64,000 nt of DNA from a virus, in IMG/VR virus record IMGVR_UViG_3300045988_130114, positions 12,650-76,649 of that record; one strand, written 5' to 3'. Positions within the stretch are counted from its first letter, which is position 1; every line of letters starts with the position of its first letter. This document shows, one piece after another, positions 8,440-56,711 of this stretch. A program made the translations under genes and the position numbers. The notes under the pieces are model-generated. The model was not told the DNA's origin, did not search any database, and was given only the letters and a program-made list of their open reading frames with translations.

Positions 8440-8512
8440 GGTTGAATGGCGAAGTGATTAACGCAACGGTCCGCAAAACCGTTATTCGTGGGTTTGAATC
8501 CCACTTCAACCT
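8440..8512 (+). tRNA. tRNA-like gene, anticodon GCA (Cys), non-canonical C33 and TTTGAAT T-loop
   Basis: Hand fold: acceptor GGTTGAA/TTCAACC, anticodon stem ACGGT/ACCGT, loop CCGCAAA, T arm GTGGG-TTTGAAT-CCCAC. Confidence 0.55.
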
Positions 8513-8588
8513 CAAAGATAGAAATAACAACCGAAGTACAAGGCGATACTGTGGATTTTCTAATAAACGTTTTACAGACAGCCATATT

Positions 8589-8659
8589 GCGGAAATAGCT
8601 CATTGGTCAGAGCGTTGGCATTCCAGCCAAAGAGTGGGGTTCGATTCCCTGTTTCCGCT
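8589..8659 (+). tRNA. tRNA-like gene, Gly(UCC)-like with a 6-nt anticodon loop
   Basis: Hand fold: acceptor GCGGAAA/TTTCCGC, D arm GCTC-ATTGGTCA-GAGC, perfect anticodon stem TTGGC/GCCAA enclosing only ATTCCA, T loop TTCGATT. Confidence 0.5.
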
Positions 8660-8776
8660 CGAATGTCGTTCAAGCTGGCTGGTTGATTGGTATTATGGTA
8701 GATGTGCATAGTTCGATTTTATGCGTTACTCTGGTATCGGTCAATCTTACAGCGTGGGAAGACATGCAAATTTGTT

Positions 8777-19376: not shown

Positions 19377-20414
19377 ATGGCAAAGCCTAAGATTCCAAAT
19401 CAGAAAAAGAAGTATCAAGAACTCAACGAGAGATTAAGCAGATATGTATCCCTCGTTGAGCAAATATACGATACACTGAATTTGGAAGCAGCCAAGGCTG
19501 TTTCACGCACTCAATATTCCTCCGATAGTGATAAACCGTTTAAATGGTCTGACTATCCTCAAACTAAAAAACAAATTGACGACATACAAAGACATTTCGT
19601 AGAAGATATAAACGCAATTATCTATCGCGGTACGACCGAAGAATGGAAAAATAGTAATGAAGCACAGGATTTGATAGCAAACAGAGTATTAAAAGCATAT
19701 AACGCACAAGTTGATAGAGAGAAATATAAAGTCTTGTATCAAACAAATTCAGATGCTCTGAAAGCATTCCAGAGTCGAAAAGATAAAGGGCTCAATATAT
19801 CTGCAAAACTTTGGCAGCAATCTATGATCTACAAAGAAGAATTGGAGGCTGCAATCTCATGCGCTATTAAAAAAGGAACTAGTGCTGTTACGTTGAGTAA
19901 GCAAATAAGCAAGTATTTACTTAATTTTCCATCACTGCAAAAAGATTATAAAAGCAAATATGGAAGTGCGGAACATATACAAGATTGTGAGTACAGATCT
20001 ATTCGTTTAGCCCGTTCAGAAATAAACATGGCTTATAGAACAGCCGAAAATGAACGTTGGAAGCAGATGGATTTTGTCGTAGGATACGAAATAAAATTGA
20101 GCTCATCACATCATAGTCGTATGCCTCATGGAGACATTTGTGATACTCTTGCAGGTAAATATCCAAAAGATTTCACATGGACAGGATGGCACCCGAATGA
20201 CTTATGTTATAAAGTTCCTATCCTCAAAACAGAAGAAGAATTCTGGGAATGGGATGGGCGTAGTGATTCCACAACTGAAAGCGTGAATGAAGTCAAGGAT
20301 GTGCCGGATGCATTCAAACAGTGGGTTGGCACAAATTCGAAACGCATAGTAGACGCAAAGAAGAAAGGCACTTTGCCATATTTTTTAAAGGATAACCCGT
20401 TATATCTTAAATAA
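19377..20414 (+). CDS. head morphogenesis protein (Mu F / SPP1 gp7 family)
   Basis: IRLARSEINMAYRTAE and GWHPNDLCY motifs, with position after the portal. Confidence 0.8.
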   Translation: MAKPKIPNQKKKYQELNERLSRYVSLVEQIYDTLNLEAAKAVSRTQYSSDSDKPFKWSDYPQTKKQIDDIQRHFVEDINAIIYRGTTEEWKNSNEAQDLIANRVLKAYNAQVDREKYKVLYQTNSDALKAFQSRKDKGLNISAKLWQQSMIYKEELEAAISCAIKKGTSAVTLSKQISKYLLNFPSLQKDYKSKYGSAEHIQDCEYRSIRLARSEINMAYRTAENERWKQMDFVVGYEIKLSSSHHSRMPHGDICDTLAGKYPKDFTWTGWHPNDLCYKVPILKTEEEFWEWDGRSDSTTESVNEVKDVPDAFKQWVGTNSKRIVDAKKKGTLPYFLKDNPLYLK

Positions 20415-42444: not shown

Positions 42445-42942
42445 ATGATTTTGGCAATACTATCATTATTGGTTTTCGCATCTTATGTTGGTGTGATGAT
42501 TTACAAGACAAAGGGTATCCCTTATTCTATTTCCGATACCTATTACATTCTGAGTAACAGGTATTGGTTCGGTATATGCATGATTCTCCCGTCTTTGTTG
42601 TTGCTTCCGGCCGCATTGGATGCAAGTACAGAAAACAGTCAGTTCCTGATCTTTCTTTCTGTAGCCGGAATGATTGTATTGGGAGTATCCCCGAATTTTA
42701 AAGGAGCACACAAGAAAGCTCATATAGCCGGCGCGGTGATGTCGCTTGTATTCTCCCAAATATGGGTAGGATGCAATTCGTGGTATTGGCTGCTGCTATG
42801 GGCTGCATTTCTGATCTACGCGATAACGTTTGTAGTCAAGAATTGGTCCGGAAACCTTATATGGGACCTGACGGCATGCAAATCGATGTTCTGGATTGAG
42901 TTAATTTCATTGCTAACCGTTTACTTGACTTGTTTGCTATGA
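42445..42942 (+). CDS. multi-pass membrane protein
   Basis: Five or so hydrophobic segments. Confidence 0.45.
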   Translation: MILAILSLLVFASYVGVMIYKTKGIPYSISDTYYILSNRYWFGICMILPSLLLLPAALDASTENSQFLIFLSVAGMIVLGVSPNFKGAHKKAHIAGAVMSLVFSQIWVGCNSWYWLLLWAAFLIYAITFVVKNWSGNLIWDLTACKSMFWIELISLLTVYLTCLL

Positions 42943-43391
42943 AGGAAGCTATAGTACATACAACTACAGGCGGATTTGCGGCAATCGCTACCGCATTTGT
43001 TTCCGAGTCATTGCAGAATATGATTCCGTGGCTGATTGTATCATGCGCGGTAATCCTTTGTGATCTTCTCTTCGGTGTCAGAAAAAGTATGCTAATGGGT
43101 GAAAAAGTCAGATTCTCTCGTGCAATTCGCGCTACTATGGGAAAGATGGTTACTTATTTTGCTTTTGTCTGCATGGTCTGCATGATCACTGTGGCAAGTC
43201 ATAGCGAATATCCTATCGATGTATATTCCTGCTTATTGGTATGCTTTATTGAAGGGTGTTCGATTGTCGGCAATATATTGAAACCAAAGGGGATCAATAT
43301 AAATGTAATTGGAGCTTTGGGAGTCTTTGGAAAGAAGGTGTTCAAGGTTGATAAAGAAGATGTGAAGGAGATTATAGAAAAGGAGAAGTAA
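42930..43391 (+). CDS. holin (phage_holin_4-like)
   Basis: Several TM segments and ...FIEGCSIVGNILKPKG, as in the toxin-secretion/phage-lysis holin family. Lies near the endolysin. Confidence 0.55.
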   Translation: MFAMKEAIVHTTTGGFAAIATAFVSESLQNMIPWLIVSCAVILCDLLFGVRKSMLMGEKVRFSRAIRATMGKMVTYFAFVCMVCMITVASHSEYPIDVYSCLLVCFIEGCSIVGNILKPKGININVIGALGVFGKKVFKVDKEDVKEIIEKEK

Positions 43392-43399
43392 GTATGAAT

Positions 43400-43852
43400 T
43401 TATACACTATTATTTATGTTCTTCCCTTTTTGCTTTTTATCATACTCTATGCATTTGCGGAGAATAAGCCCAAAAATGGCAAAAGGAGTGTAAAGAATCG
43501 CAGAAGCTTGAAGAAACGTAGTTAAAGCATGTTCATATCCTAGGATGTAATCTGAAGGAGATATAAGTAATTTAGACGATGTCACTAATATGGGAAGAAT
43601 TAGTATAAAGGCTTCTAGTTTGTATCTTCTTTTTGATATAGAAGAACATAGACATAACCATATAAAAGAAAAGTAAATGGATAATATAGAAGAAGTTGCC
43701 GTAAATATGATTTGCAAATATACATCGAGAGATTTAAACTCTGGTATATATAAATACAAAATAGAAAAGCATAGTGGCAGTTGTATGCAAAATCCTGTAA
43801 ATACATTCTTTTGTTCAGCGTTATAGCTTTTTATTAATTCTGAAATATCCAT
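43400..43852 (-). CDS. membrane protein (reverse-strand moron in the lysis cassette)
   Basis: 150 aa, about 4 TM segments, AT-rich. Confidence 0.45.
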   Translation of the reverse strand: MDISELIKSYNAEQKNVFTGFCIQLPLCFSILYLYIPEFKSLDVYLQIIFTATSSILSIYFSFIWLCLCSSISKRRYKLEAFILILPILVTSSKLLISPSDYILGYEHALTTFLQASAILYTPFAIFGLILRKCIEYDKKQKGKNINNSV

Positions 43853-43896: not shown

Positions 43897-44166
43897 ATGA
43901 ATATGATAAATAAAATCAGCGCACTAGCCGGCAAGCTTCTATCCATGATAGGCATAGACGGCATGGTCCACATTATAGTATGCCAGAATTTGGTTATGTG
44001 GCTATCAAAATATATTCCGCTATGGTTAGCGGTCGCTATAACCGTTGCGATCTTTATTCTGAAGGAAATATACGACAAGTATTGTAAGAAAAGCGAGTTT
44101 TCCATCAAGGATATTATCTGTGATTGCGGAGGTTTGGCGTTGGGAGTATTAACATTAATTTTATAG
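43897..44166 (+). CDS. small membrane protein (holin/antiholin-like)
   Basis: 89 aa with 2-3 TM segments, directly upstream of the endolysin. Confidence 0.45.
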   Translation: MNMINKISALAGKLLSMIGIDGMVHIIVCQNLVMWLSKYIPLWLAVAITVAIFILKEIYDKYCKKSEFSIKDIICDCGGLALGVLTLIL

Positions 44167-44178
44167 GAGGAAACATAT

Positions 44179-44697
44179 ATGGCAGATGTGAAGAAATTGG
44201 CACCGTTTATTCTAAAATGGGAAGGCGGTTTCGTTAATGATCCGGATGATTTGGGAGGTGCTACTAATATGGGTGTAACAATCGCTACCTATGAGGCGTA
44301 TTGTAGAAAGAAAGGCTATCCTAAACCGACTATAGAGAGACTAAAGAATCTTTCCAAGGAGGAATGGACAGAGATATTGAAAACTATGTACTGGGATAGA
44401 TGGAAGGCAGACGAGATCAAGTCTCAGTCGGTCGCTAATATTTTAGTTGATTGGATATGGGCCTCCGGTATTCATGGTATCAAGATTCCGCAGGAATTGG
44501 TTGGTGTAATGCCGGACGGAATTGTCGGACCAAAAACTATAGCGGCAGTTAATTCTAAGAATCCACGCGAGTTATTCGATCGTATCAAGATTGCCCGCTT
44601 CGATTTTATAGAAGATATCTGCCGGAAGCGTCCCGCAAACAACAAGTTCAAACGCGGATGGTTGAACAGAGTTAACGATATCAAATTTGAATCATAA
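44179..44697 (+). CDS. endolysin, GH108 lysozyme with PG-binding domain
   Basis: [25 protein letters not shown] signature. Confidence 0.85.
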
Positions 44698-44714: not shown

Positions 44715-44996
44715 ATGAAATCAACAGTTATAACCTTCACAAAGGGTGAGAAGAATTATGTAAGCGATGCCGTTCAGGTAAATTCTGCGGAAGTAGGATT
44801 GCAGATTACATTTGAAAAAGGCGGTAAACTTTGGGTGTATATAAGCTATGACGGGCAGAATTACTCTTCAGTGGACAGCAGAAACTACACAAAAGACTTT
44901 GCTCGTTCGATTGTCGGTTGTATCCCTGGACAGTATCTCAAAATCGAATGTGAAACAGAACCGGTAAAGGCTTCTATCTTTGAATCGGAAGAATAA
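44715..44996 (+). CDS. hypothetical protein
   Basis: 93-aa ORF. Confidence 0.4.
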   Translation: MKSTVITFTKGEKNYVSDAVQVNSAEVGLQITFEKGGKLWVYISYDGQNYSSVDSRNYTKDFARSIVGCIPGQYLKIECETEPVKASIFESEE

Positions 44997-47533
44997 TGGA
45001 CGCAATAGGATTAAATCCAATTAAGCTTGATGCGATAGGGCTTGATCCTATTCGCATGAATGCGATACGCTTAGGAGTTCCGGGAGCTTCTTCCGGTTCC
45101 GCCCGTCCCTACATCGACCCCGACTTGCTCAAGCACGTCAAGATGGCCATCTCCACCTGGGGCAAGTCCAACGACGACCCCGACCGGGCAATCTTGAAGG
45201 ACTTGTCCGGCAACGGGAACGACATGCGCCTGCTGAACTTCGGATTTGCAGAGGGCAGTGGATATGGGCTGTATGGAACTGATTTTACTACTTATCAAAC
45301 TGTTCCTGCCTCTGTAGAAGTTGTTAGAACACATAATAAACTATCTGCTACAAATCATGGCATTATAGGTCATATGATTATCTATAAAACCATTGAAGAT
45401 TCTTCTAGTTATCCGGATACTCCTGCTTTTAAAATAAAAGTTACTAATTTAACTAGCGAATTAAGATACTTTTATGTTAGTGAGACCAATACGGCTATCA
45501 GAACTTCAATTGCTATTACTTCTGATGGAGTGTATGATTTGCCTGAATCTAAGAATACATTATTTAATGGCACAGAACCTATTAATATTGGATTCTCAAC
45601 ATCCGCCGGCGGTTCTGTTACTATCGAGCAACTCCCCGACTTCGAAGGCTGGCTATGTACAGACGGAGTAGACGACATAATCGAGTCCGTCAAGCCCGTC
45701 TCTGAGATGTTGGAGGGTAGCAATGAGATTACGGTGGTGAGTATTATTCATCAGATATCAACTCCAAATACCAATAATTATACTAATGTAATTAGAACTA
45801 AAGCTGATTCTTATGGTGTTTCTATCGCAGTAGGGAAAGATGTAAGCAATGGTAAAACAGGAATATATGGATATACGGTAAAAGAAGGTAGTGCTACTAT
45901 TATTAATTCAATATTAGGAGATAAAGCTGATTATACCCTTAGATACAACAATATTAATGCAAATATTGATTCTAAATTTTTTGTACAGGGTTGGTATCTT
46001 AATGGAAGTTACAGAGAATTATCTCAGATCGCTTACGCCGGAGGCTTCATCGCCAACAAAGTCCTGACCACCGACGAAATCAATCAGATCATCTCCTATT
46101 TCAACTTGGACCGTCCGGGACAGATTATCAAGCCTCAGTTGTACTACAACATCAAGAAGCAGGGTATCACAAACGAGAACCACGCAGAGTTCAACGATCA
46201 GTTGATTGACTTTGTAGGAGGTCACAACATTCAGCTAAACAATATCGGCTGGGAAGGAGAGAGTGGTATCAATAGCTATCCTGTAATTTTCGGTGTTAAT
46301 AAGACTTGGAATGCTCAAGGTAGTAAAGAGGATGATAAATATTATATTTATACTAGTAGTGCTAATAAGTATAATATTACACAAATTAAAATTAGTAGTT
46401 CTTTATTTTATAGTTATATAAAAAGGAATGGAGAGTTAACTAGTGATAATAAAGATATACCATCTTTTAAACTTAAAGTAACTGGATTAGACTATGATAA
46501 ATTTTACTTAGCTTATTATTATTTAAAATCATCAGATGTAGAAGTTAAGAATGTTACTAATATTACTTCTGATGGAATTTATGAATTGCCTAAATCGTTT
46601 GCTAGTGACGGAAGTTTAACTGAAACTAATTCTTACATAGGATTAAGTTTTATTAGAAAATCAGCTAATATTCCTGATGTAGTAAAAAATGTAAATGTTA
46701 CCATCGAAGTCCTCCCCACCATCGAACACGCTCTCAGCCTAGACGGAATCAACGACTTCGGCAAGGTAACCGGTCTCCCTGTTTTGAAGGACTATACGGT
46801 AGTGGCTCTTCGTAAATGGTTATATGGTGATTCTGTAACAAGTACTGAAACTGGCTCTATTGTTTCTAAATGTAAAGTTGGTAATAACGGTGCTTTTATT
46901 TTAGAACAGACGTTTAATCGAAATCCTTCTCGCTCTAGCACCTTTTCTTTTGGCACAATTAACTCGTTGATGAGTAACGATAAGTTGAACGAAGAATCAT
47001 TTACTTATCAAACTAAATATAGTTATAACGGGGAGACTATAGTATCTGGTTCCGGTGTTGATGGTGACTCCATGTGGCTAGGAACGATTAGAGACGGTGA
47101 TGCTCGTTTCTCTAAACTTGCATTATGGTCTCTCATGCTCTTCCCCTACAGTCTCTCCGAGTTCCTGTTGGAACGCCAACTGAGAAAGTACAAGGCAGGA
47201 ACGCTATATCCGGATATGATTGAGTTCAGACCGATTGTAAAGAGTAACATCCCTTACTCTTCAATCTCCTACTCAGTTAATCCAGGAGAATACATTGTCG
47301 AAGGTAGCGCAGTAACTATCACCATAACCTTGTCAAATGCTTCTGATAAACTGGTCGGTGTATCATCCAACGCCATCAGCGACATATCCACCTCTGGAGA
47401 CAATGGTGTCTATGAAGTAACCGGAAAGGTCGCCAAGTCTCCTCAGAAGATCAGCATAGTTATCTCCAGCTACTTGACAATGTTAGGTAACGAGACTTTA
47501 ATTTCGAATAAAAAATTAATTAAAAACGAATAA
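44996..47533 (+). CDS. receptor-binding / fibre-like protein with internal duplication and mosaic composition
   Basis: 845 aa. Two copies of a PxFK(I/L)KVT(N/G)L...ITSDG(V/I)Y(D/E)LP(E/K)S module, each followed by IE(Q/V)LP...DG(V/I)(D/N)D (LamG-like). Confidence 0.5.
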   Translation: MDAIGLNPIKLDAIGLDPIRMNAIRLGVPGASSGSARPYIDPDLLKHVKMAISTWGKSNDDPDRAILKDLSGNGNDMRLLNFGFAEGSGYGLYGTDFTTYQTVPASVEVVRTHNKLSATNHGIIGHMIIYKTIEDSSSYPDTPAFKIKVTNLTSELRYFYVSETNTAIRTSIAITSDGVYDLPESKNTLFNGTEPINIGFSTSAGGSVTIEQLPDFEGWLCTDGVDDIIESVKPVSEMLEGSNEITVVSIIHQISTPNTNNYTNVIRTKADSYGVSIAVGKDVSNGKTGIYGYTVKEGSATIINSILGDKADYTLRYNNINANIDSKFFVQGWYLNGSYRELSQIAYAGGFIANKVLTTDEINQIISYFNLDRPGQIIKPQLYYNIKKQGITNENHAEFNDQLIDFVGGHNIQLNNIGWEGESGINSYPVIFGVNKTWNAQGSKEDDKYYIYTSSANKYNITQIKISSSLFYSYIKRNGELTSDNKDIPSFKLKVTGLDYDKFYLAYYYLKSSDVEVKNVTNITSDGIYELPKSFASDGSLTETNSYIGLSFIRKSANIPDVVKNVNVTIEVLPTIEHALSLDGINDFGKVTGLPVLKDYTVVALRKWLYGDSVTSTETGSIVSKCKVGNNGAFILEQTFNRNPSRSSTFSFGTINSLMSNDKLNEESFTYQTKYSYNGETIVSGSGVDGDSMWLGTIRDGDARFSKLALWSLMLFPYSLSEFLLERQLRKYKAGTLYPDMIEFRPIVKSNIPYSSISYSVNPGEYIVEGSAVTITITLSNASDKLVGVSSNAISDISTSGDNGVYEVTGKVAKSPQKISIVISSYLTMLGNETLISNKKLIKNE

Positions 47534-47534
47534 T

Positions 47535-49175
47535 ATGGAAAAGATATTTGATATAGCAAAGGACTCCGAAAAGTCGTGGGGAGTCATTGCGCAAGGGATA
47601 GATGGGAATTTTGAGGAGTTAAGCCTCAAAGTGGACGGAACGCGGAGGATTACTGGTAAGGATTTCTATAATGGACTGTATGAGTATGGAACCGGTATCA
47701 AGGATAGCAGGTATAATGTTGTATGTGGCCCATTGAAAATTTCTGTAGGAGAAAAAATAAACATTGTTCCTTCTGGTACAACAAAAATGGGAGCAAGAAT
47801 ATTCGACAGCGAGAATCTCACCAATGCGACTACGTTGAAGAATACAATTGATATATTATCAGAATACGAATATATTTCAGAATTTGACGGATATATTCTT
47901 TTTAGCGCAAACGACACAAGAGGTGTTGTTATTTCTGCTGAAACATGCACAGTTTCAATTTCGCTTGTCAACAATTTAACAGATAAGATAAACGACAAGA
48001 TTGAAAAGTTAGAAGAAGAAGTTTCAAATTTAGATATTAATATATGTTGCACTCCATTTTCTCACGTAAATACGACGATAGTAAACGATTGCCAGCATAG
48101 CGATTCGTATGAATTGTCAAACGGAGAAATTGACGCAACAAACAAACTGCTTTGGAATCATTCGTTGCATATAAACAACGGAAATGTTGTGTTTAAGATA
48201 AATCCTATTAACCTTGTTGACAATGTTTTATCGTTAAAGATGATGATAAATAGCATTGCATCAAGCGAAAAAAGCGTAGAGGTTAAGATATATAACAACA
48301 CAGAGTCAAACAATTACTATGTTTATGAATTGATGCGGGCAAACGTCAACACTGTATATGGCACATGGCGTGAATACACAATACCATCACTTGCGTATTG
48401 GTATAAAAATGGAAATTCTGTCAATCTAGAGAGTATCGACAGAATATCTATCAGTGGAGTTAATTGCGATTTTAATGTACAGTATGTAGGAATTAAGTCA
48501 AATAGACTGAAAAAAGGTATTGTGACATTTACATTTGACGACGGCTATAAGTCACAAGCTCTTGCTATGAAGGCTCTCGCAGAAAGAGGATTGAGCGGAA
48601 CTATCTTTGCAATAAAGGATACTTTTAGCTATGGCGATGATAGTGAATACCTCAACTTAAATGGATTTAGAGAAGTTGTTGATAAATATAACGCTGATAT
48701 AGAGTGTCACGGAGCATCATCATTTGATGATATGTCAGACGATAATGAATTGGCTACGTATATGCAGCAAACGAAACAAATGCTTATTGATAACGGACTT
48801 GGAAAGGGAGACTATATGGCATATCCAAATGGATTCCACTCTGATCGAGTTGTCAACATTGCGAAAAGATTCTTTAAGGCATGCCGAACAATCCAGAATT
48901 ATATACCGATGGAAACCTATCCCCCGTATGATTTGTATCGAATAAGAGCGTACAGTAATATCAAGTCATCAAGTACAGACAAGATTAAACAGCTTATTGA
49001 CAGGTCTGTAGCTTCTGGGGCATGGCTTATTTTAGTATATCATAAAATTGAAGATGGAGAAACGGGGATGTATTGCAGCCTTGAGTCATTAGAGGAAGTA
49101 ATTGACTATGCTGTCAATTCGGGTATTAGGATTATGAACTTTAAGGATGTCTTTGAATCTGGAGTCGTTATTTAA
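47535..49175 (+). CDS. tail-associated protein with C-terminal polysaccharide deacetylase (NodB) domain
   Basis: GIVTFTFDDGYKSQ...LSGTIFAI...CHG motifs. Confidence 0.6.
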   Translation: MEKIFDIAKDSEKSWGVIAQGIDGNFEELSLKVDGTRRITGKDFYNGLYEYGTGIKDSRYNVVCGPLKISVGEKINIVPSGTTKMGARIFDSENLTNATTLKNTIDILSEYEYISEFDGYILFSANDTRGVVISAETCTVSISLVNNLTDKINDKIEKLEEEVSNLDINICCTPFSHVNTTIVNDCQHSDSYELSNGEIDATNKLLWNHSLHINNGNVVFKINPINLVDNVLSLKMMINSIASSEKSVEVKIYNNTESNNYYVYELMRANVNTVYGTWREYTIPSLAYWYKNGNSVNLESIDRISISGVNCDFNVQYVGIKSNRLKKGIVTFTFDDGYKSQALAMKALAERGLSGTIFAIKDTFSYGDDSEYLNLNGFREVVDKYNADIECHGASSFDDMSDDNELATYMQQTKQMLIDNGLGKGDYMAYPNGFHSDRVVNIAKRFFKACRTIQNYIPMETYPPYDLYRIRAYSNIKSSSTDKIKQLIDRSVASGAWLILVYHKIEDGETGMYCSLESLEEVIDYAVNSGIRIMNFKDVFESGVVI

Positions 49176-49232: not shown

Positions 49233-49505
49233 ATGAAATACACTGTATTCCCAACAATTGACTTGCAAGAGGTTCCTCAAGAGGAGATAGACAAGCGTAA
49301 CCTTGTACCTCGCAAGAGCGTAAATGAAAGTAAAACTTTGATGAAATGCCAGCACTATGCTGAGTTATTTCCTCATAAGATGATTAAGACTATTGCTGAT
49401 GACGGAACGGAAGAGCTATCTTTTCCTTATCCTACCTATGAAGGCGAAGAGTTGAATACTTTATTATCCGGTCCGGAGTGGTCATCAAGTGAAAGTATCA
49501 TATGA
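49233..49505 (+). CDS. hypothetical protein
   Basis: 90-aa ORF. Confidence 0.4.
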   Translation: MKYTVFPTIDLQEVPQEEIDKRNLVPRKSVNESKTLMKCQHYAELFPHKMIKTIADDGTEELSFPYPTYEGEELNTLLSGPEWSSSESII

Positions 49506-49966
49506 AATCTCTCCCTTGGATATTAGTCTGCCTGCTTGTATGCGTGGTCGTGTGGATGCGTTGTAATCCGCACGATCCATCAACGGTGTACATTAAGGGA
49601 GATACTGTACGTATCCGGGATACGATAAGAGACACCATTCCCATACCGGTAAAGGAAACTCTGAAGCGTACCGATACGGTGTATTTGCCGATTATAGTAG
49701 ATACCACTACCGACAGAACCGTAGAAGGCGATTCGGTTCCGGTACTTATACCGATAACAAGCAAGGAGTATAAGACTGATGATTACCGGGCAGTGGTTAG
49801 CGGTTATAAGCCCAGCCTTGACTTTATGGAAGTCTACAGAGAAAAGGAAATCATTACTCTAAAACCAAAGCAAAAACACTGGGGGCTTGGCCTGCAAGTA
49901 GGCTACGGTTATCCAGGTGGATTGTATGTCGGTGGTGGAGTAAGTTATAATTTATTTATGTGGTAA
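49502..49966 (+). CDS. membrane-anchored protein (spanin-like?)
   Basis: N-terminal hydrophobic anchor MKSLPWILVCLLVCVVVW and Gly/Tyr-rich C-terminus. Confidence 0.35.
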   Translation: MKSLPWILVCLLVCVVVWMRCNPHDPSTVYIKGDTVRIRDTIRDTIPIPVKETLKRTDTVYLPIIVDTTTDRTVEGDSVPVLIPITSKEYKTDDYRAVVSGYKPSLDFMEVYREKEIITLKPKQKHWGLGLQVGYGYPGGLYVGGGVSYNLFMW

Positions 49967-50334
49967 TACCGGCACTATCTTCACAGACCGTTTCCGGTAT
50001 GAAAAGTTTAAGTTGTATTTATATAACAATTTCCATTGGAAAAAGGTTTATTAAGAAAGGAGGACAAAATGAGACATTAATTGATTATTAAGCACTAAGT
50101 TATCCGGTAAAGTAGAAGGCCGGTTATCATAACAAATGTAACTCTTTTGGGGGATAGAGTAAAAAAGAACCCCCAACACTGAAAGTTGACGCCAATCGAA
50201 CTTTTTAGCATACCAAAAGCATACATAGGTAGTGTCGGGGGTATAATATCCTTAACATTCCTATATATGCTTTTGTTTATTTGGTACTGAGTACGATTGG
50301 CAAAGGCAAAAGTACAACAAAAAATTAAATTACT

Positions 50335-50631
50335 ATGTGTAAGTCAGAGATTTTTGCCGAGATTCTAAATATTGTTGGGAAAGAAACTGAAGTTTCTACT
50401 GAATTGATCCTTTCATCAAGTAAAGTTACTGAAGTTGTTGACGCCCGTTCTATTGTAGTATTCTTCCTCACTGAATACGGGCTATATCCTGAACAAATAG
50501 CGACTTTGCTTCACAAGACATCCGCTAGTATCCGTTATCTTATATCTACTTTTGAAAGCCGTAAACTGGCAAACAAAATGATTGCAATATATCTGCAAAA
50601 TATTCGCAAATCGCTTGAAAATGAGCTCTGA
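50335..50631 (+). CDS. DnaA C-terminal-like HTH protein
   Basis: SSSKVTEVVDARSIVVFFLTEYGLYPEQIATLLHKTSASIRYLIS resembles the DnaA domain IV pattern. Confidence 0.4.
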   Translation: MCKSEIFAEILNIVGKETEVSTELILSSSKVTEVVDARSIVVFFLTEYGLYPEQIATLLHKTSASIRYLISTFESRKLANKMIAIYLQNIRKSLENEL

Positions 50632-50700
50632 TTTACCGTATTTCTATTATATACTTTTGTGATGCGGTTAATATTGACCGTGTTATAATTGTATATCAAT

Positions 50701-51678
50701 ATGAGTGAAACAAAGACTTACGTTTTCCCGGAGTCAGGCGGGAACGGTGGCGGTAGTGGAATGATGGCCATGCTGGCTCCTCTATTGCAGCAGAAAGGAA
50801 TTGATCCGAACTTGTTGGTAGCTATGAATGGCAAGAACAACAATAGCGGCTTCGGTGGGGAAGGATCATGGTTTATATGGGTGATTTTTTTGTTTTTCCT
50901 TATGGGATGGGGAAACAATGGAAATGGATGGGGAAACAATGGCGGCGGCAACAACGCAGGCGGAATCCCTAATCTTATCAACAACGATGCAGGAAGGGAG
51001 TTGCTTATGAGTGCTATCCAGGGAAATGGTCAGGCTATCAATACGCTGGCTACCAATTTGAATTGCTCTGTAGGGCAAATTCAACAGTCTATCAACAGCG
51101 TCATGACGCAGATTCAGGGAGTAGGCAACCAAATCGGGATGTCTTCACAGCAGATTATCAACTCCGTGCAAGCTGGTAACTGTCAAATAGCACAAGCAAT
51201 CGCAGACTGTTGCTGCAAGACGCAGAATGCTATTACTACGCAAGGCTATGAAAGTCAGTTGGCTATCTGCAACCAGACTAATACCTTGGTGAACACGGCC
51301 AACCAGAACACCCTGTCATTACGTGACGGAGCAACCGCAAATACAAATGCTATTTTGGGGAAACTGGATGCAATGCAGAATCAGGCCTTACTGGACAAGA
51401 TCGATGCGCTTCGTGAGGCTAAATCAGCTTTGCAAACTCAGTTATCACAGGAACATCAAACATCGACATTCGGGCAAATGATTGGTCAGGCAACAGCTCC
51501 TCTGGGTGCTGCTTTAGGTGATCTCAGTTCGCGCCTGGCAAAAATCGAGTGTAAACAACCAGAGACTGTTACTGTTCCTTACAGTCCTATTGCGGCAGTT
51601 CCCAACTGTGTAGCATACCAATACGGCTTGTATGGTGGTTTCAATCCTTACGCTGCCGGTAATGGCTTTTGGGGTTAA
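50701..51678 (+). CDS. Gly/Asn/Gln-rich membrane protein with Cys cluster
   Basis: One TM segment (WFIWVIFLFFLMGW), GNNGNGWGNNGGGNNAGG, CCCK and Q/N-rich helical repeats. Confidence 0.5.
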   Translation: MSETKTYVFPESGGNGGGSGMMAMLAPLLQQKGIDPNLLVAMNGKNNNSGFGGEGSWFIWVIFLFFLMGWGNNGNGWGNNGGGNNAGGIPNLINNDAGRELLMSAIQGNGQAINTLATNLNCSVGQIQQSINSVMTQIQGVGNQIGMSSQQIINSVQAGNCQIAQAIADCCCKTQNAITTQGYESQLAICNQTNTLVNTANQNTLSLRDGATANTNAILGKLDAMQNQALLDKIDALREAKSALQTQLSQEHQTSTFGQMIGQATAPLGAALGDLSSRLAKIECKQPETVTVPYSPIAAVPNCVAYQYGLYGGFNPYAAGNGFWG

Positions 51679-51696
51679 TAGAGGAAGGAGGCTATT

Positions 51697-52038
51697 ATGG
51701 CAGTATATCCTTTCCAATTTGTAAACCGTAGGGGTTCTGCGGCTATATCAACCTCGGGAGTAACGGTCAATACTGCTAATGTGGTGTTTTCCTTTCCCAA
51801 CCACGCCTTTGTTAACGCATGGTATAGAGGGACAATATACATCGACATTGCCCAAGCGGTACCTACCGGAACAACCGGCACGCTTCCTGTTCTGTTTGAG
51901 ACCAATGGAGCTACCCAGGCGGTCACTAAATATAATGGAGAAGCTCTGACTGCGGCAGACATTCCCGGTACTGGTGTGTATGAGTTCTGGTTTGACCGTG
52001 CTACCAACACGTTGCAGATTATGACCGGAGTAGTTTAA
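51697..52038 (+). CDS. hypothetical protein
   Basis: 113-aa ORF, beta-rich by eye. Confidence 0.45.
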   Translation: MAVYPFQFVNRRGSAAISTSGVTVNTANVVFSFPNHAFVNAWYRGTIYIDIAQAVPTGTTGTLPVLFETNGATQAVTKYNGEALTAADIPGTGVYEFWFDRATNTLQIMTGVV

Positions 52039-52087
52039 AAACAACAATGGGCGGGAGCAATCCCGCTCCTTAAAGAGTTAATTAATT

Positions 52088-52621
52088 ATGCCTTTTCAGA
52101 ATTTAAGAACAAACAGCGAGTTCTTTGTCCTTCATAGGGACGGTACTCCATATATAGAAGTAGGATCTGTAGCCGGGGTTTCCAATCCTGTGCCGGAGTT
52201 TATGCAACAACCTCTTCCCTATGGGCAGCCCCCGAGAATGGTGGTTGATATAACAATCAAGGTCGGGGAGCAGACGGTGACTTTCCAAAAGATACCGGCA
52301 ATGTCTGACATTGCTGATGCAAACTTTCCCGGAGGTGGGAATATGGTAATATCCGGCTCAAGGGAATCGATGAATGCGGAAGTTGCCGCCATGCGCAACC
52401 GCTCTTCGGAGATATTGGGCAGTGTTGATCATCATCGTTCCGTCATAGAGTCATGCGACAAGATGCTTCAGGTCCTTAATCCTGAATTTGCAGAACGCCA
52501 GCGTCAGGAAGCGGAAAATAAAGCGCTTCGGCAAGAACTTAGCGAATTGAAGGCTATGATGGCTGATTTCTTCAAGTCTTCTGAAAAGACATCTGGTAGT
52601 AACAATTCTAAAAAACAATAG
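52088..52621 (+). CDS. hypothetical protein with C-terminal coiled coil
   Basis: 177-aa ORF. Confidence 0.45.
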   Translation: MPFQNLRTNSEFFVLHRDGTPYIEVGSVAGVSNPVPEFMQQPLPYGQPPRMVVDITIKVGEQTVTFQKIPAMSDIADANFPGGGNMVISGSRESMNAEVAAMRNRSSEILGSVDHHRSVIESCDKMLQVLNPEFAERQRQEAENKALRQELSELKAMMADFFKSSEKTSGSNNSKKQ

Positions 52622-52622
52622 T

Positions 52623-52892
52623 ATGATGATGATTGAGATTTCCGAGAGCAAGGTCGAGAAAATGTCCGACTACGCTGAAAAGATGCTTAAATACGGTGGT
52701 AAGCTGATGCAATGCATCGAAGAATTATCCGGTGGTGAAAGCATGGGAAGACGTGAACGTTATTATGACGATGACGACGACCGCTATGACGAGATGGGTG
52801 AACGTGGTGATTATGGTGGCGGTTCCGGTCGTGGCGGCTATGGCGAAAGACGCGGCGTACGTGGTACAGGACGCTATTCCCGTTATCGTTAA
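52623..52892 (+). CDS. Asp-run / RGG-rich small protein
   Basis: RERYYDDDDDRYDEMGERGDYGGGSGRGGYGERRGVRGTGRYSRYR. Confidence 0.45.
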   Translation: MMMIEISESKVEKMSDYAEKMLKYGGKLMQCIEELSGGESMGRRERYYDDDDDRYDEMGERGDYGGGSGRGGYGERRGVRGTGRYSRYR

Positions 52893-52942
52893 TGTTTAAT
52901 TAGGGGGTGGATCATTTCTACTCCCTATAACTTTATTTAATC

Positions 52943-53365
52943 ATGAGGAGAGAACCTTTGGATATAAGAGATAGAAGACCGGAAGAAATGGAAGCTTACT
53001 TGTCTAACTTCGGTTGGCATTTCAATAAGAAAATGTGCGAGTTTGCAGTGTCGCTCATGAAAAAGCTTAATCCTTCTACCGGTAAAAAAGAGCGGATTGA
53101 ACCGATATCGAAAGAGAAAGTAGATGAGTTGCTTACCCGCTATGGCATAAAGCTTGAAAATAATGCGCTATATGATTATGTTTATGTAGCCAACATGGGT
53201 AAGGCAGATTATCTGAAGTCATCTATTCCCGACGAAGCGCATTTGGCTCTTTATATAAAGGATACAATTGATGACCCTGATGCTCCTGACGGGGCAACGA
53301 TGAGAAGATGGTATGCGACAATGATTGCTGCCGGAGAACCTATTGAATGGGACGAAACGCTTTGA
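52943..53365 (+). CDS. hypothetical protein
   Basis: 140-aa ORF. Confidence 0.45.
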   Translation: MRREPLDIRDRRPEEMEAYLSNFGWHFNKKMCEFAVSLMKKLNPSTGKKERIEPISKEKVDELLTRYGIKLENNALYDYVYVANMGKADYLKSSIPDEAHLALYIKDTIDDPDAPDGATMRRWYATMIAAGEPIEWDETL

Positions 53366-53368
53366 TGA

Positions 53369-53803
53369 ATGATACGACAACGGTTTGCATTACCCAAGTA
53401 TGAATGGAGCTGCATGGTATATTATGCAGTAGATACATATTATACAGAGGAAATACTGGATAATATGCATTCCATCGGTTGCGACGGTGATATGCTTCGT
53501 ACTGCGTATGAGAATATTAGCTCCGGCAATTTGAATACCGGAGTTACTTATTCCAACTTCGGCACCCGGGAAACAGTAATGGTCATTGCCCTTACTTCGT
53601 CCCCAAAGGAATTTGCCAAGTCCTGGCGGCATGAATGCGGGCACATGGCTACTCATATTTGCCAGGCGTTCGGTATAGACCCTTACGGGGAGGAAATTCA
53701 GTATATCGGAGATGATATCATCGAAAAGACATGGGAGTATGCTAAGACATTGTTATGTGAGTGTGACTGCTGTAAAAACAAGGTCAAACATTTAATACGC
53801 TAA
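53369..53803 (+). CDS. HExxH-motif protein (putative metallopeptidase-like)
   Basis: WRHECGHMATH plus a C-terminal CECDCC cluster. Confidence 0.4.
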   Translation: MIRQRFALPKYEWSCMVYYAVDTYYTEEILDNMHSIGCDGDMLRTAYENISSGNLNTGVTYSNFGTRETVMVIALTSSPKEFAKSWRHECGHMATHICQAFGIDPYGEEIQYIGDDIIEKTWEYAKTLLCECDCCKNKVKHLIR

Positions 53804-53806
53804 TCC

Positions 53807-53971
53807 ATGAAGAATAAAGAAATTAAGAAAGCATTAAAGAGTGATACGCCTATCAACAGTATGTATGCTCTTATTCCAGGCAATAGGTTGCAGGCTTTCA
53901 AAAAGTTTGCCTCCCGATTTGGATTTACTGAAGAACGAATAAAAACAGTGCTCGAAAATGAGAAACGATAA
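53807..53971 (+). CDS. small hypothetical protein (54 aa)
   Basis: Hand-translated MKNKEIKKALKSD...VLENEKR*. Confidence 0.3.
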   Translation: MKNKEIKKALKSDTPINSMYALIPGNRLQAFKKFASRFGFTEERIKTVLENEKR

Positions 53972-54215
53972 GCTGGACATATTGCTTGAACAGGCCGACG
54001 ACCGGTATCACTCGGATTTCTGCCGGCTCCTGCTTGTGATGCTATGGAACGCCTAGAAAGGTGGTTGTATTGGCTGATTCCTCTTGCAATTATTGCAAGG
54101 GTTATATCTTTGTGTGTATAATTGATATTGTAACTTGATGAGTGTAAAACATATAAAATAATCTATTTTTTATTGCAATTTATCTTCTACCTTTTGCAGA
54201 TACAAATTAAATTCA

Positions 54216-54237: not shown

Positions 54238-54300
54238 GCCTTTGGCTTACGTTTGTCCCCCTCTTGATAATGGGCATGCCTAACCAAAGGCCATTTTTTT
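54238..54300 (+). promoter_or_regulatory. terminator-like hairpin plus T7 tract in the 5' leader of the NYN gene (attenuator candidate)
   Basis: GCCTTTGG (54238-45) pairs with CCAAAGGC (54284-91), followed by T7 at 54294-54300. ATG at 54306. Confidence 0.35.
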
Positions 54301-54305
54301 ATTTT

Positions 54306-55013
54306 ATGAAAACGCGTCCAAATACATCGTACACAGAAACCCCTATAAGAGTTGCCATATTAATTGATGGTGGGTATTTTATAAAACGCTATAATGCAAT
54401 GTATAATAAGTCCGGCAAAAAGACAGCATTAACTATTGCCAATGATTTATATACTATATCCCATTCTCATGTAGGGAAAAATAATTATTTATATCGCATT
54501 TTTTATTATGATTGTGTACCATTCGCCAAAAAGATACATAATCCTGTCTCTAATAAATGTATAGACTTTTCTAAAACAGAAGAGGCTATCCGCAGAAGTG
54601 AGTTAATAAACGAACTTAAGAAAAAGAGAAAAGTCGCTCTGCGTCTAGGTAATATTAAGGAAAGCAAAAGATGGCTTTTCTATGATAACACAATGAGAAA
54701 ATTATTAAAGAAAGAGATTTCTCTTGATGACATTAATGCGGATGACGTATATTATGAATTGCGTCAAAAGGGGATTGATATGAAAATTGGTGTTGACATC
54801 GCTTCTTTATCTTTAAAAGGTTTTGTAGATAAAATCGTTCTTATTTCTGGAGATTCAGATTTTGTCCCTGCTGCAAAATTGGCTAGACGTGAAGGGATTG
54901 ATTTTGTTCTTGATCCTATGCATTGCGAACATATCGAAAATGATCTATATGAACATATTGATGGATTAAAAAGTATACCTTTATATCATCAGAAAGATGC
55001 AAAGAAAAAATAG
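54306..55013 (+). CDS. NYN (LabA/PIN-like) domain protein
   Basis: IRVAILIDGGYF...GIDMKIGVDIASL...IVLISGDSDFVPAAKLARREG. The start is uncertain (TTG 54264 and ATG 54270, 54276 or 54306). Confidence 0.65.
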   Translation: MKTRPNTSYTETPIRVAILIDGGYFIKRYNAMYNKSGKKTALTIANDLYTISHSHVGKNNYLYRIFYYDCVPFAKKIHNPVSNKCIDFSKTEEAIRRSELINELKKKRKVALRLGNIKESKRWLFYDNTMRKLLKKEISLDDINADDVYYELRQKGIDMKIGVDIASLSLKGFVDKIVLISGDSDFVPAAKLARREGIDFVLDPMHCEHIENDLYEHIDGLKSIPLYHQKDAKKK

Positions 55014-55051: not shown

Positions 55052-55080
55052 GCCCGGCATACAACATGCTGGGCTTTTTT
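55052..55080 (+). terminator. intrinsic terminator
   Basis: GCCCGGCAT/ATGCTGGGC stem followed by T6. Confidence 0.7.
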
Positions 55081-55105
55081 GTACCTTTGCCGAAAATTAA
55101 AAATC

Positions 55106-55348
55106 ATGGAAGAAAACAAATACGACCAAGAATCGATCAGAGAGCTGCTCTCATGGGCGCAGAATACATTAAATAACAAGACCTACCCGGAAGGAGAGTT
55201 GGTCCTGGACAAATGCATCAAAGTAATAGACTGCAAAAGTCATATAGAGGCAATGATCCAGATGATCTCTAAGAACTGGGAGAATCCGACGTTTTACCCG
55301 ACGATTGACATGTTCCGGAGATTTAGAGAGAAACTGGAAGAAATATAA
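55106..55348 (+). CDS. small hypothetical protein (80 aa)
   Basis: Own TACCTTTG box at 55082-55089. MEENKYDQESIRELLSWAQ... Confidence 0.45.
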   Translation: MEENKYDQESIRELLSWAQNTLNNKTYPEGELVLDKCIKVIDCKSHIEAMIQMISKNWENPTFYPTIDMFRRFREKLEEI

Positions 55349-55438: not shown

Positions 55439-55461
55439 AAGGCAGCTTATTAGGCTGCCTT
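55439..55461 (-). terminator. integrase terminator hairpin
   Basis: AAGGCAGC/GCTGCCTT stem, with a T-run after it on the minus strand. Confidence 0.55.
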
Positions 55462-56711
55462 TATGTTTTCATCAACATTATATCTGCTTTCATCTCTATA
55501 TACTCTTTATATTTGCTTGGATTATTTATATAGTCAATAACTCTTTTAATAGCTATTTCCGCTTGCTTAAATCTCGTTTTAGCATAGTACCTGACAATGC
55601 CTCTGCTTTTATCTGAATGAGCAAGGCAGTAGTCTATCACATTGTCTGGTATTCCTAAGTCAAATGCGTATTGAGCAAATGACTTTCTGGCAGAATAAAA
55701 TACAACTTTTTCCTTTATTCCTACCTCCTTTGCAAGCTCAGAAATAGACCTGCATATGTATCTTGAGAAATTGTGATAAGAAAACTTATATCCGAAATCC
55801 AATTTCTTTGTTTTGTTGTTTATCCATTTGTCTATTATTTCTTTTGCTGGATCAGTAATAGGAAGTAAGCAATGTTGTTCTGTTTCAGTTTTAAGCTTCG
55901 TTTTAATTCTTACATAATCTACTTTATCGCTAGTAAAACGAGTATTCATCAAATCTATTAAGTTCATTCCACCGAGATAAAAAGAAAGCATAAAAACATC
56001 CCTTGCCACAATATACTTTTTTTCTTTGGGATTACTATTTCTTATCATATTAAGACTTTCTAAGGCTATATCTACTTCTTTAATTGGAGATTTAGGGATT
56101 TTCTTATAAGCAAACGGATGTATTTCGTATCTCACAGAACCAGAGTTTATATTTCTATTGATCACCGCTTTTATTTGAGACATCATCATTCCTATTGTTG
56201 TGTTCCCTATGTTTTTTTTCGTTTTCAGATATCTTGAGAATCCGTCAATAATATTGGGTGTTATATCTGACATGGGTATTTCTCCTCTTGTAAATTCTGT
56301 GAAGTATCTGCAGCTCCTTTCAATCAATACTGCATAACTTTCCCTACCTTCGGAATTTAGTTCATCTATAAATAAGGAGCACGCTTTTTGATATGTAATA
56401 TTCTGTTTGTCTTTTATTTTTGAGTCAGAAACTAATATATCTTTGATTTGTTTGCAAGAATAAAGAGATTGATGTTTTATTTCATCAAGTTTATTCTGCA
56501 TATCATTCATCATGTTTCTTAGTTTTGAATTTATAATTGAAGCATCCGGACGTTTTGTTACCTGTCCATCCTTAAATTGCGAAAGGTTGTCGATTATAAA
56601 ACGTGTTACAATATAACATGTTTCCTTCTTATGACATACAGCTATTCTTATTTTATGCCTTCCGTCCTTTAAAACTTTTGCTTTGAAGATTGTAAGTTTA
56701 ATAGTTGCCAT
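55461..56711 (-). CDS. int: tyrosine site-specific integrase (Bacteroides phage-integrase type)
   Basis: N-terminal arm-binding-like MATIKLTIFKAKVLKDGRHKIRIAV. Catalytic-region motifs ARKSFAQY, CLAHS and IVRYY. Confidence 0.9.
   Translation of the reverse strand: MATIKLTIFKAKVLKDGRHKIRIAVCHKKETCYIVTRFIIDNLSQFKDGQVTKRPDASIINSKLRNMMNDMQNKLDEIKHQSLYSCKQIKDILVSDSKIKDKQNITYQKACSLFIDELNSEGRESYAVLIERSCRYFTEFTRGEIPMSDITPNIIDGFSRYLKTKKNIGNTTIGMMMSQIKAVINRNINSGSVRYEIHPFAYKKIPKSPIKEVDIALESLNMIRNSNPKEKKYIVARDVFMLSFYLGGMNLIDLMNTRFTSDKVDYVRIKTKLKTETEQHCLLPITDPAKEIIDKWINNKTKKLDFGYKFSYHNFSRYICRSISELAKEVGIKEKVVFYSARKSFAQYAFDLGIPDNVIDYCLAHSDKSRGIVRYYAKTRFKQAEIAIKRVIDYINNPSKYKEYIEMKADIMLMKT

Follow-up and report, generated by a model that had tools for sequence, protein, structure and literature searches.

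The locus described here raises the question of what a block of eight small genes, situated between the lysis genes and the integrase gene of a Bacteroides-type phage, does for its carriers, and whether this phage acquired it recently. The block lies in IMG/VR virus record IMGVR_UViG_3300045988_130114, of which positions 12,650 to 76,649 were analyzed; this whole stretch of 64,000 nucleotides (nt), numbered from its first letter, is referred to as the window. It belongs to a tailed phage or prophage of Bacteroides type and encodes a terminase, a portal protein, a major head protein, a tape-measure protein of 1,362 amino acids (aa) and tail-fibre-like genes. The eight open reading frames (ORFs), designated g1 to g8, occupy positions 50335-53971 on the + strand, between the genes of a DUF6808 protein (49502-49966) and of an NYN-domain protein (54264-55013). 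A first-pass annotation of the DNA had listed the same eight genes, all of which exist, and had regarded them as a G+C-rich orphan cassette of horizontal origin. We found the cassette to be a single copy of an operon of six genes, g2-g7, that is very common, is shared by many unrelated phages of gut Bacteroidales and probably has a late, membrane-linked function; g2-g7 form the core of the cassette, and g8 is an optional extra.

Related loci (184 viral loci and 56 loci from a species-genome collection) were compared for gene content by jackhmmer and hmmsearch, records were searched by tblastn and blastn, and 27 dereplicated, diverse loci served for the analysis of composition, promoters and neighbourhood. 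The order g2-g3-g4-(g5)-g6-g7 was kept nearly without exception in both sets of loci. Among the viral loci, homologues of g5 were present in 139 of 184, g1 stood 5' of g2 in 103 and g8 was found in 75. The designation as an orphan is contradicted by this collinearity and by the g2 family alone, which at 90% identity falls into more than 5,563 clusters in the protein database, all of them unnamed. In addition, relatives of g6 were found in at least 585 IMG/VR stretches, and relatives of the g2 homologue of phage cr116_1 in at least 588. Nearly all of the 56 species-genome loci belong to Bacteroidales, the host genera including Bacteroides, Phocaeicola, Prevotella/Segatella, Parabacteroides, Alistipes, Paraprevotella and Leyella. 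Isolate genomes with the cassette are those of Paraprevotella xylaniphila YIT 11841, Parabacteroides segnis BX2 and Leyella stercorea An906. Matches in metagenome-assembled genomes labelled as Clostridium, Bifidobacteriaceae, Methanobacteriaceae, Vibrio and others were considered as signs of a wider host range and set aside as probably mis-binned phage contigs.

The carriers of the operon differ widely, and the cassette was found to be self-contained in the sense that it occurs in unrelated phage lineages and at varied genomic positions. The same genes in the same order are present in the cultured Bacteroides phage C3_41T2LP and in the 151-kb csAssE-Sib, and carriers within the Crassvirales include cr271_1 (Intestiviridae), cr4_1 (Suoliviridae) and cr116_1 (Steigviridae). 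By type, the carriers include a 74-kb plaque-forming phage of B. uniformis, temperate phages of approximately 45-75 kb and contigs of up to 168 kb. Meggiephage C3-41T2LP is a carrier that forms plaques on B. uniformis (PMC9727126). In the literature that was searched, the operon is not described as a unit. The cassette is absent from the cultured phages crAss001, crAss002 and DAC15, the first of which we take, following the taxonomy of the International Committee on Taxonomy of Viruses, to belong to the same subfamily as the cassette-bearing cr116_1. In one related locus (L291) g2-g3 are naturally deleted, in another (L295) the cassette is replaced by DUF6978 and DUF1828/1829 genes, and in a third (L249) by HicAB together with a gene set of similar architecture that is not homologous. 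A 261-aa protein of this last set, which has a transmembrane (TM) segment, a GRG-rich stretch, helices and a CCC motif, was compared with g2 as a possible divergent member (hhalign probability 0.4%), and its 167-aa neighbour was compared with g4; both were rejected as homologues and are analogues at most. The possibility that the block is a microvirus, an inovirus or another small integrated virus was likewise rejected, since it contains no capsid, replication or packaging gene and all of its genes are small. As a separate observation, the records vir215 (L185, NC_092586.1) and vir335 (L186, BK063680.1), which name Methanomassiliicoccales as host, contain g2-like genes (phrog_16490) without g3-g7; these genes adjoin a tail-protein gene (phrog_5302), accompanied in vir215 by a reverse transcriptase of the diversity-generating retroelement type. 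Either the host assignment of these two records is wrong or g2 is used more widely and independently of the cassette.

The first-pass annotation had read a local rise in G+C content as a sign of horizontal acquisition. The rise itself was borne out: g2-g7 have a G+C content of 0.454 compared to 0.379 for the window, a value reached by only 3.2% of windows of equal length, and the G+C content at third codon positions is 0.45-0.48 in g2-g5 as compared to approximately 0.30-0.35 in the head and packaging genes. Windows as G+C-rich as g2-g7 are confined to the cassette and to the tail-fibre region (~34-39 kb), where the G+C content equals or exceeds that of the cassette (maximum 0.475). However, the proposed explanation of the rise did not hold, since in all 27 diverse loci the operon was richer in G+C than the DNA flanking it, by a mean of 5.3 points (+0.053; Wilcoxon p = 5.6e-6), while the absolute G+C content of the cassette spanned 0.32-0.57 and followed that of the surrounding genome. 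The G+C excess is therefore intrinsic to the genes of the operon and thus provides no evidence of a recent import into this phage. A recent horizontal acquisition peculiar to this phage would fit the local G+C rise and the presence of the cassette's own promoter and terminator, but appears highly improbable to us given that the operon is ubiquitous and syntenic, that its G+C excess is adjusted to each genome and that nearly all relatives with a matching integrase (72-100% identity) carry the cassette at the same place beside the integrase. Moreover, no trace of an insertion event was seen around the cassette, where neither insertion scars nor convincing flanking repeats or att-like sites were found. 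A search of the cassette region against Rfam gave no match.

The expression unit can be delimited by its signals. The sequence TACTTTTG, a Bacteroides-type -7 element (TAnnTTTG), lies at 50652-50659 on the + strand, 41 nt 5' of the ATG of g2; the promoter-like box reported previously is thus real, although it had been placed 12 nt away, at 50664-50671. Throughout the window TAnnTTTG is only weakly enriched (92 matches versus 70 +/- 8 expected). Among the 27 diverse loci, it was found 36-81 nt 5' of g2 in 15, as opposed to 0-1 before g3-g7, and it preceded g1 in 0 of 11. This conservation of the position before g2 and the near absence of the motif before g3-g7 indicate that g2-g7 constitute an operon with a conserved host-type promoter. 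The gene of a small DNA-binding protein usually precedes the operon, namely g1 in the window and an excisionase-type helix-turn-helix (HTH) protein or an antirepressor elsewhere. Between the DUF6808 gene and g1, an inverted repeat with two arms of 16 nt (50214-50229 and 50260-50275; 94% complementary, 30-nt spacer) may be either the terminator of the late operon or an operator for g1. The cassette closes at 54081-54101 (+ strand) with a hairpin of a 9-bp stem and a 3-nt loop that is followed by TTATATCTTT, a T-rich tail; this hairpin, previously reported at about 54090-54115, is thus present at somewhat different coordinates and is, judged by its sequence, a weak terminator-like site. An internal hairpin with an 11-bp stem between g5 and g6 (52901-52927, + strand) might split the operon into the units g2-g5 and g6-g8.

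The central component of the operon is g2 (50689/50701-51678, + strand; phrog_16490, E = 9e-68), a single-pass membrane protein. When read from the ATG at 50701, it has 325 aa, equals a database protein with 100% identity (P0001) and contains GNNGNGWGNNGGG and a CCCK cluster, in agreement with its previous description. Its conserved N-terminus of approximately 55 aa, in which D35-P36 is invariant, is followed by one TM segment (WFIWVIFLFFL, about aa 56-70), a G/N-rich linker and a long, N/Q-rich amphipathic helical region (about aa 99-280) with strong 3.5-residue periodicity at aa 99-175 and 253-280. The CCC at 170-172 is invariant, and the protein ends in a Pro-rich stretch and a Gly/aromatic tail, which in many homologues contains GCGCNNYWG. 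No holin family of Pfam or PHROGs matches g2, and comparison of its profile with PDB sequences gave only non-significant coiled coils, for example coronavirus HR1 at E = 0.07. It is from such non-significant coiled-coil similarity that the public 'spike' and 'fiber' labels on g2 homologues derive.

The following two genes encode proteins for which AlphaFold2 models were informative. For g3 (51697-52038, + strand; 113 aa, phrog_31654), previously described as a beta-type protein, the model is indeed all-beta, an eight-stranded beta-sandwich (pLDDT 78). Foldseek searches of BFVD with this model retrieved, at E = 1e-4 to 1e-2 and a TMq of about 0.5, the C-terminal ends of long proteins of the fibre and receptor-binding kind, while the PDB gave nothing below E = 0.1, the top non-significant hits being the Pa193 and Mu fibres. 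As modelled, the fold of g3 thus resembles the C-terminal knob of tail fibres or receptor-binding proteins. Among 226 representatives, the g3 family is essentially always stand-alone and shows no tie to fibre proteins at the sequence level. The model of g4 (52088-52621, + strand; 177 aa, phrog_28898; pLDDT 82) consists of a six-stranded small beta-barrel and three helices, the last being a long coiled-coil-like helix at the C-terminus, which agrees with the coiled-coil protein of the first-pass annotation. Foldseek of g4 against the PDB found nothing below E = 0.1, and its profile matched only coiled coils there.

As had been noted, g5 (52623-52892, + strand; 89 aa) carries a DDDDD run and an RGG-rich tail in addition to an N-terminal helix; the basic tail is conserved as YGERRGVxGTGRYSRYR(R). 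The 140-aa g6 (52943-53365, + strand; phrog_38431) is a member of DUF7841 (PF25223), with 115.7 bits against a cutoff of 25.2 and E = 1.7e-33. Gene fusions tie the g5-like tail, DUF7841 and the g3-like domain to each other: in cr4_1, gp15 (L083:4297-4923) joins DUF7841 to a g5-like acidic/RGG tail, and a 294-aa crAss-like protein annotated with DUF7841 (BFVD A0A8S5LXP6) matches the fold of g3, which suggests, at the level of the structural model, that it joins a g3-like domain to DUF7841. A 164-aa protein (P0379) in which g3 is joined to the C-terminal half of g7 was also observed and is probably a deletion chimera.

The product of g7 (53369-53803, + strand; 144 aa) is a minimal HExxH protein with the motif HECGH and a C-terminal cysteine cluster (CxC/CC); an HExxH motif and a cysteine cluster had been recognized previously. 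In 14 diverse homologues H88, E89, H92 and E108 are invariant, which corresponds to the HExxH and third-ligand signature of zincins and makes g7 a putative Zn metallopeptidase. Like the HExxH zincins of the SprT-like, ImmA/IrrE and MPTase-PolyVal groups, g7 is small and combines an invariant HExxH with a downstream Glu and a C-terminal Cys cluster; unlike these, it has no significant profile match in Pfam, NCBIfam or the PDB. The window protein in particular does not significantly match MPTase-PolyVal, SprT-like, Peptidase_M78 or any other Pfam family, and single homologues reach Reprolysin_3 or SprT-like in Pfam at only E = 0.016-0.06; the depositors of C3_41T2LP labelled its g7 homologue 'PolyVal metallopeptidase superfamily'.

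The two remaining genes flank the core. The 98-aa HTH protein g1 (50335-50631, + strand) has a conserved VDAR motif. Its likeness to DnaA domain IV, which had been noted before, is present in the NCBIfam DnaA C-terminus profile (E = 1e-6) but stays below threshold for Bac_DnaA_C (PF08299; 26.6 bits, cutoff 31.5, E = 6e-6). We regard g1 as a putative local regulator of the operon. The 54-aa g8 (53807-53971, + strand), which occurs in a subset of cassettes only, is 57% identical to its counterpart in C3_41T2LP. Taken together, Pfam, PHROGs, NCBIfam and PADLOC yielded only DUF7841, unnamed PHROGs and the sub-threshold DnaA-C HTH, so that the earlier statement that the set fits no standard, functionally named phage module stands; no profile assigned any of the genes to an ordinary virion or lysis function. 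PHROG profiles already exist for g2, g3, g4 and g6, as does the Pfam family DUF7841 for g6. Profiles of g2, g3, g4, g6 and g7 produced only coiled-coil noise against PDB sequences, and a Pfam scan of every member of the g3 and g7 alignments added nothing significant.

With regard to timing, recoded phages were particularly informative. In these phages the cassette genes are full of in-frame TAG or TGA codons (loci L083, L146-L151, L153, L155, L157-L160, L191, L192 and L199, and further L201, L202, L216, L222 and L229). The in-frame TAG codons align with Gln residues of the window proteins, and in g4 up to 10 of 16 Gln codons are TAG. Borges et al. (bioRxiv 10.1101/2021.08.26.457843) have tied such a pattern of stop recoding to structural and lysis genes of the late class, and the many in-frame recoded stops therefore mark the cassette genes as late. 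As a side observation, an upstream DUF7841 gene of cr4_1-type phages is without in-frame recoded stops. The position of the cassette also bears on its timing. In cr4_1 and cr116_1 it lies directly 3' of the holin/endolysin genes, relatives of the window phage show the arrangement endolysin-DUF6808-g1-g2...g7-integrase, and a prophage-like contig, whose g2 homologue is held by NCBI under B. fragilis, the arrangement holin-amidase-...-g1-g2...g8. Since the operon is portable and strictly syntenic, is written in the late code, centres on a membrane protein and is lacking in close relatives whose virion type is the same, its function would be late and not part of the phage core. That the cassette is no core component of the virion is further indicated by its absence from crAss001, crAss002 and DAC15, by the natural loss of g2-g3 in L291 and by its replacement in L295.

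These features have also to be compared with those of morons as defined by Hendrix and Juhala. If the cassette were a prophage moron, it might serve superinfection exclusion, defence or counter-defence, or a change in the surface of the lysogen or the infected cell. Like a moron, it is equipped with a promoter of its own and a terminator-like hairpin, it differs from its neighbours in G+C content, and it is often located at the variable prophage end beside the integrase, which adjoins it in 7 of the 27 diverse loci; other relatives have this slot filled by HicAB or by DUF6978 and DUF1828/1829 genes. The presence of a membrane protein in the set would fit this role as well. In contrast to morons, however, the cassette is a deeply conserved six-gene operon with an intrinsic G+C excess, and the strict order of six genes over such deep divergence is unlike that of typical morons or anti-defence genes. 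PADLOC matched none of g1-g8 at E <= 0.01 and recognized only the NYN gene next to the cassette. Furthermore, the operon is conserved in the Crassvirales, which are thought to be non-lysogenic (review PMC10136315), and there it is written in the late alternative code, which argues against a role expressed from the prophage as the function shared by all carriers. We regard a moron function as unlikely.

A late function could also be exerted in the virion itself, and it is conceivable, though doubtful, that the operon is an accessory virion module, a reading that we consider nearly as likely as the one favoured below. In that case g2-g4 would form a fibre- or adhesin-like appendage with a coiled-coil shaft and a knob, or the proteins would be packaged and ejected, with the hydrophobic segment of g2 inserting into the membrane, g7 acting as a processing protease and the acidic/RGG protein g5 interacting with nucleic acid. 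The resemblance of the g3 model to the knobs at the C-termini of many tail fibres and receptor-binding proteins, of which the T7 gp17 tip is an example and on which it superposes in BFVD, is in line with such a role, as are the matches of the g4 C-terminus to trimeric coiled coils, the depositors' labels 'viral fiber' and 'spike' on g2 homologues, the location of the Crassvirales cassettes within the late structural/lysis block in the late code, and the lone g2-like genes beside tail-protein genes in vir215 and vir335. The annotation of the C3_41T2LP g7 homologue as a PolyVal-type metallopeptidase points in the same direction; Iyer and colleagues reportedly proposed, in 2017, that the PolyVal domain class occurs in virion-delivered polyvalent proteins. 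Nevertheless, the 'fiber/spike' labels rest on coiled-coil similarity that is not significant, and g3, unlike fibre knobs, is a protein of 100-170 aa on its own, without a shaft or a virion-attachment domain and without a sequence tie to fibres. The same operon occurs, moreover, in podovirus-like crAss phages and in phages with a tape-measure protein, which would be odd for a part that has to dock to a specific virion, and it is missing from cultured crAss-like phages including crAss001. A promoter and a regulator of its own and a variable position, including the prophage end beside the integrase, are also difficult to reconcile with a virion module.

We tentatively favour, as the most likely of several, a different reading, in which the operon would be a late module that acts at the cell envelope during lysis or egress. 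Lysis or egress was ranked first because of the spanin- and holin-T-like layout of g2, the recurrent place of the cassette 3' of lysis genes and the fact that no Rz/Rz1-type spanin was recognised in the lysis cluster of the window, which contains a holin (Phage_holin_4_1, 42930-43391) and a GH108 endolysin (44179-44697). Similar to the Rz/Rz1 spanins of lambda and gp11 of T1, g2 has a putative inner-membrane anchor, a long coiled-coil-like helical domain and conserved Cys residues; its end, with the Pro-rich segment and the Gly/aromatic tail, is spanin-like as well, giving a layout that resembles an i-spanin fused to an o-spanin-like tail. Spanin genes, too, are late and often lie just 3' of holin and endolysin genes, and lysis cassettes, like the g2-g7 operon, are exchanged between unrelated phages. 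The differences are nonetheless substantial. An i-spanin consists of an N-terminal TM segment and a periplasmic coiled coil, whereas g2 has an additional N-terminal domain of approximately 55 aa and is 2-3 times longer than Rz. An o-spanin is a small lipobox lipoprotein encoded within, overlapping or beside the i-spanin gene, while g2 has neither a lipobox nor a lipoprotein partner. The T1 gp11 u-spanin combines an N-terminal lipoprotein signal with a C-terminal TM segment, an arrangement that is reversed in g2 with its N-proximal TM segment. Finally, spanins have no counterpart of the five soluble cassette proteins and share neither sequence nor fold similarity with the components of the operon. 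The T4 holin T also resembles g2 in that it is late and has a single TM segment and, if g2 is oriented N-in, in a cytoplasmic N-terminal tail that could bind soluble regulators and a large extracytoplasmic domain with conserved Cys residues. In contrast to T4, where T acts with RI and RIII (class III, lysis inhibition), the partners of g2 are unrelated to RI and RIII, and unlike holins, g2 has no holin-family sequence match and is encoded in a window that already contains a Phage_holin_4_1 protein. On the basis of these comparisons we rate the operon as lying outside the known kinds of system, that is, as uncharacterised but not demonstrably a new mechanism.

Under the envelope reading, the operon would act late in the lytic cycle and at the cell envelope, where the single TM helix of g2 would anchor the protein in the inner membrane. 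The conserved N-terminus of approximately 55 aa would remain in the cytoplasm, and the N/Q-rich helical domain, together with the CCC, the Pro-rich stretch and the Gly/aromatic tail, would reach into the periplasm. In this position g2 might, at lysis or egress, help to breach or fuse the envelope or set the timing of this step. The soluble proteins g3, with its knob-like beta-sandwich, and g4, with its barrel and coiled coil, may assemble on g2 or regulate it, and the same may apply to the RGG-tailed acidic protein g5 and the DUF7841 protein g6; g7 could process or inactivate a component by virtue of its HExxH protease motif, and g1 may act as the local HTH regulator of the operon. The broader proposition that the operon is a late machine of Bacteroidales phages, crAss-like and temperate ones included, which performs or times the final envelope disruption or egress in place of Rz/Rz1-type spanins, is a possibility about which we are more doubtful.

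Several observations weigh against an envelope function. None of the proteins g3-g7 has a signal peptide or a lipobox, and no export signal was found in the translations of g3-g8, so that a spanin-like machine in the periplasm leaves five of the six core genes unexplained. Within and around g2, no ORF encodes a signal peptide with a lipobox Cys, as would be expected of an o-spanin lipoprotein. The N-in topology of g2 relies on a weak positive-inside bias of the flanking charges, which is family-wide and points towards N-in/C-out, while several homologues have an Arg directly C-terminal of the TM segment. The only structural relatives of g3 are fibre knobs, which point to the virion, and neither sequence nor fold searches tie any component to a known lysis protein. 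As far as position is concerned, the cassette of C3_41T2LP lies beside recombination genes, not lysis genes, and an endolysin gene is found within three ORFs of the cassette in only about 2 of the 27 diverse loci. In the relatives of the window phage, moreover, it is the DUF6808 gene, not g2, that adjoins the endolysin gene; its product could itself be a spanin analogue and is an equally good spanin-like candidate. A correspondence of the 'spanin' family of Borges et al. to g4 or g2 was also considered but carries no weight here: judged by the spacing of genes in cr4_1, the gene that follows g4 is at least as good a candidate for the 'spanin', and it has no TM segment either.

Some of the same observations would suit an opposite orientation of g2, N-out/C-in, in which the coiled coil, the Cys cluster and g3-g7 would form a membrane-tethered scaffold on the cytoplasmic face of the inner membrane. 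Such a scaffold would organise steps late in infection, for example assembly, the handling of DNA or release, the Cys cluster perhaps binding metal. The lack of export signals in all partners of g2 and the Arg residues following the TM segment are consistent with this, as are the RGG-type tail of g5, the invariant CCC and C-terminal GCGC motifs, which would suit cytoplasmic metal binding, and the fusions among g3-like, g5 and g6 sequences, which argue for a soluble complex. However, the charge bias across the family slightly favours N-in, searches of Pfam, PHROGs and NCBIfam revealed no domain for nucleic-acid binding or assembly, and none of the searches provided a precedent, so that we consider a scaffold of this kind quite improbable.

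The DUF6808 gene (49502-49966, + strand; PF20647, 88 bits) encodes a 154-aa protein with a membrane anchor at its N-terminus and a Gly/aromatic tail at its C-terminus (…GLGLQVGYGYPGGLYVGGGVSYNLFMW). Its G+C content (0.447) is as high as that of the cassette, and its start overlaps the stop of a 90-aa ORF (49233-49505). A DUF6808 gene lies 5' of g1-g2 in at least 69 of the 184 viral loci; in integrase-anchored relatives it is directly preceded by the endolysin gene and followed by g1. It may be a lysis-module gene of these phages, and its product may be their real spanin-like or outer-membrane-acting lysis protein. Two further genes were observed between the endolysin and DUF6808 genes of the window, one for an 845-aa protein without a family match (44996-47533) and one for a 546-aa protein with a polysaccharide deacetylase domain at its C-terminus (47535-49175). 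Both are absent from relatives in which the endolysin gene adjoins DUF6808 directly, and they are probably capsule-modifying tail-fibre or depolymerase genes. The lysis cluster also encodes a 43-aa protein that combines a TM segment with a highly basic tail (43394-43525) and an 89-aa TM protein (43897-44166), which could be an antiholin or other lysis accessories.

On the other side of the cassette, the NYN-domain (LabA-like nuclease) gene at 54264-55013 and a DUF6965 gene at 55079-55348 separate it from a tyrosine integrase gene on the opposite strand (55461-56711). Since the NYN and DUF6965 genes occur in only some of the integrase-matched relatives, the interval between cassette and integrase is a variable cargo slot, and in other relatives it is filled by HicAB or by DUF6978 and DUF1828/1829 genes. 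Elsewhere in the window, a tRNA-Cys gene stands beside a second tRNA-like gene with an abnormal two-base anticodon call (8440-8513, 8589-8660). A 345-aa minor head/morphogenesis protein (19377-20414) matches the PHROG 'Bxa ADP-ribosyl transferase' (E = 1e-70), a match that spans only profile positions 242-375 of 869, and it also matches head-morphogenesis PHROGs; the matched part of the profile is probably not the ADP-ribosyltransferase, and the protein probably has no toxin domain.

In summary, the operon belongs to the more widely shared sets of genes in Bacteroidales phages of the human gut, although each of its components has been annotated as 'hypothetical', and the strict order of its six genes across phages that share little else indicates a single multi-protein function under strong selection. 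The present analysis also corrects misleading labels on family members, namely 'outer capsid protein/viral fiber', 'spike glycoprotein' and 'RNA polymerase sigma factor/ubiquitin-like'. Direct testing is feasible because C3-41T2LP is a plaque-forming carrier on B. uniformis. If its products were virion-borne, the operon would represent a portable adhesin or ejection kit. If they act in lysis or egress, the operon would speak to the way in which phages of Bacteroidales get through the host envelope, and might bear on the frequent failure of cultures with such phages to clear.

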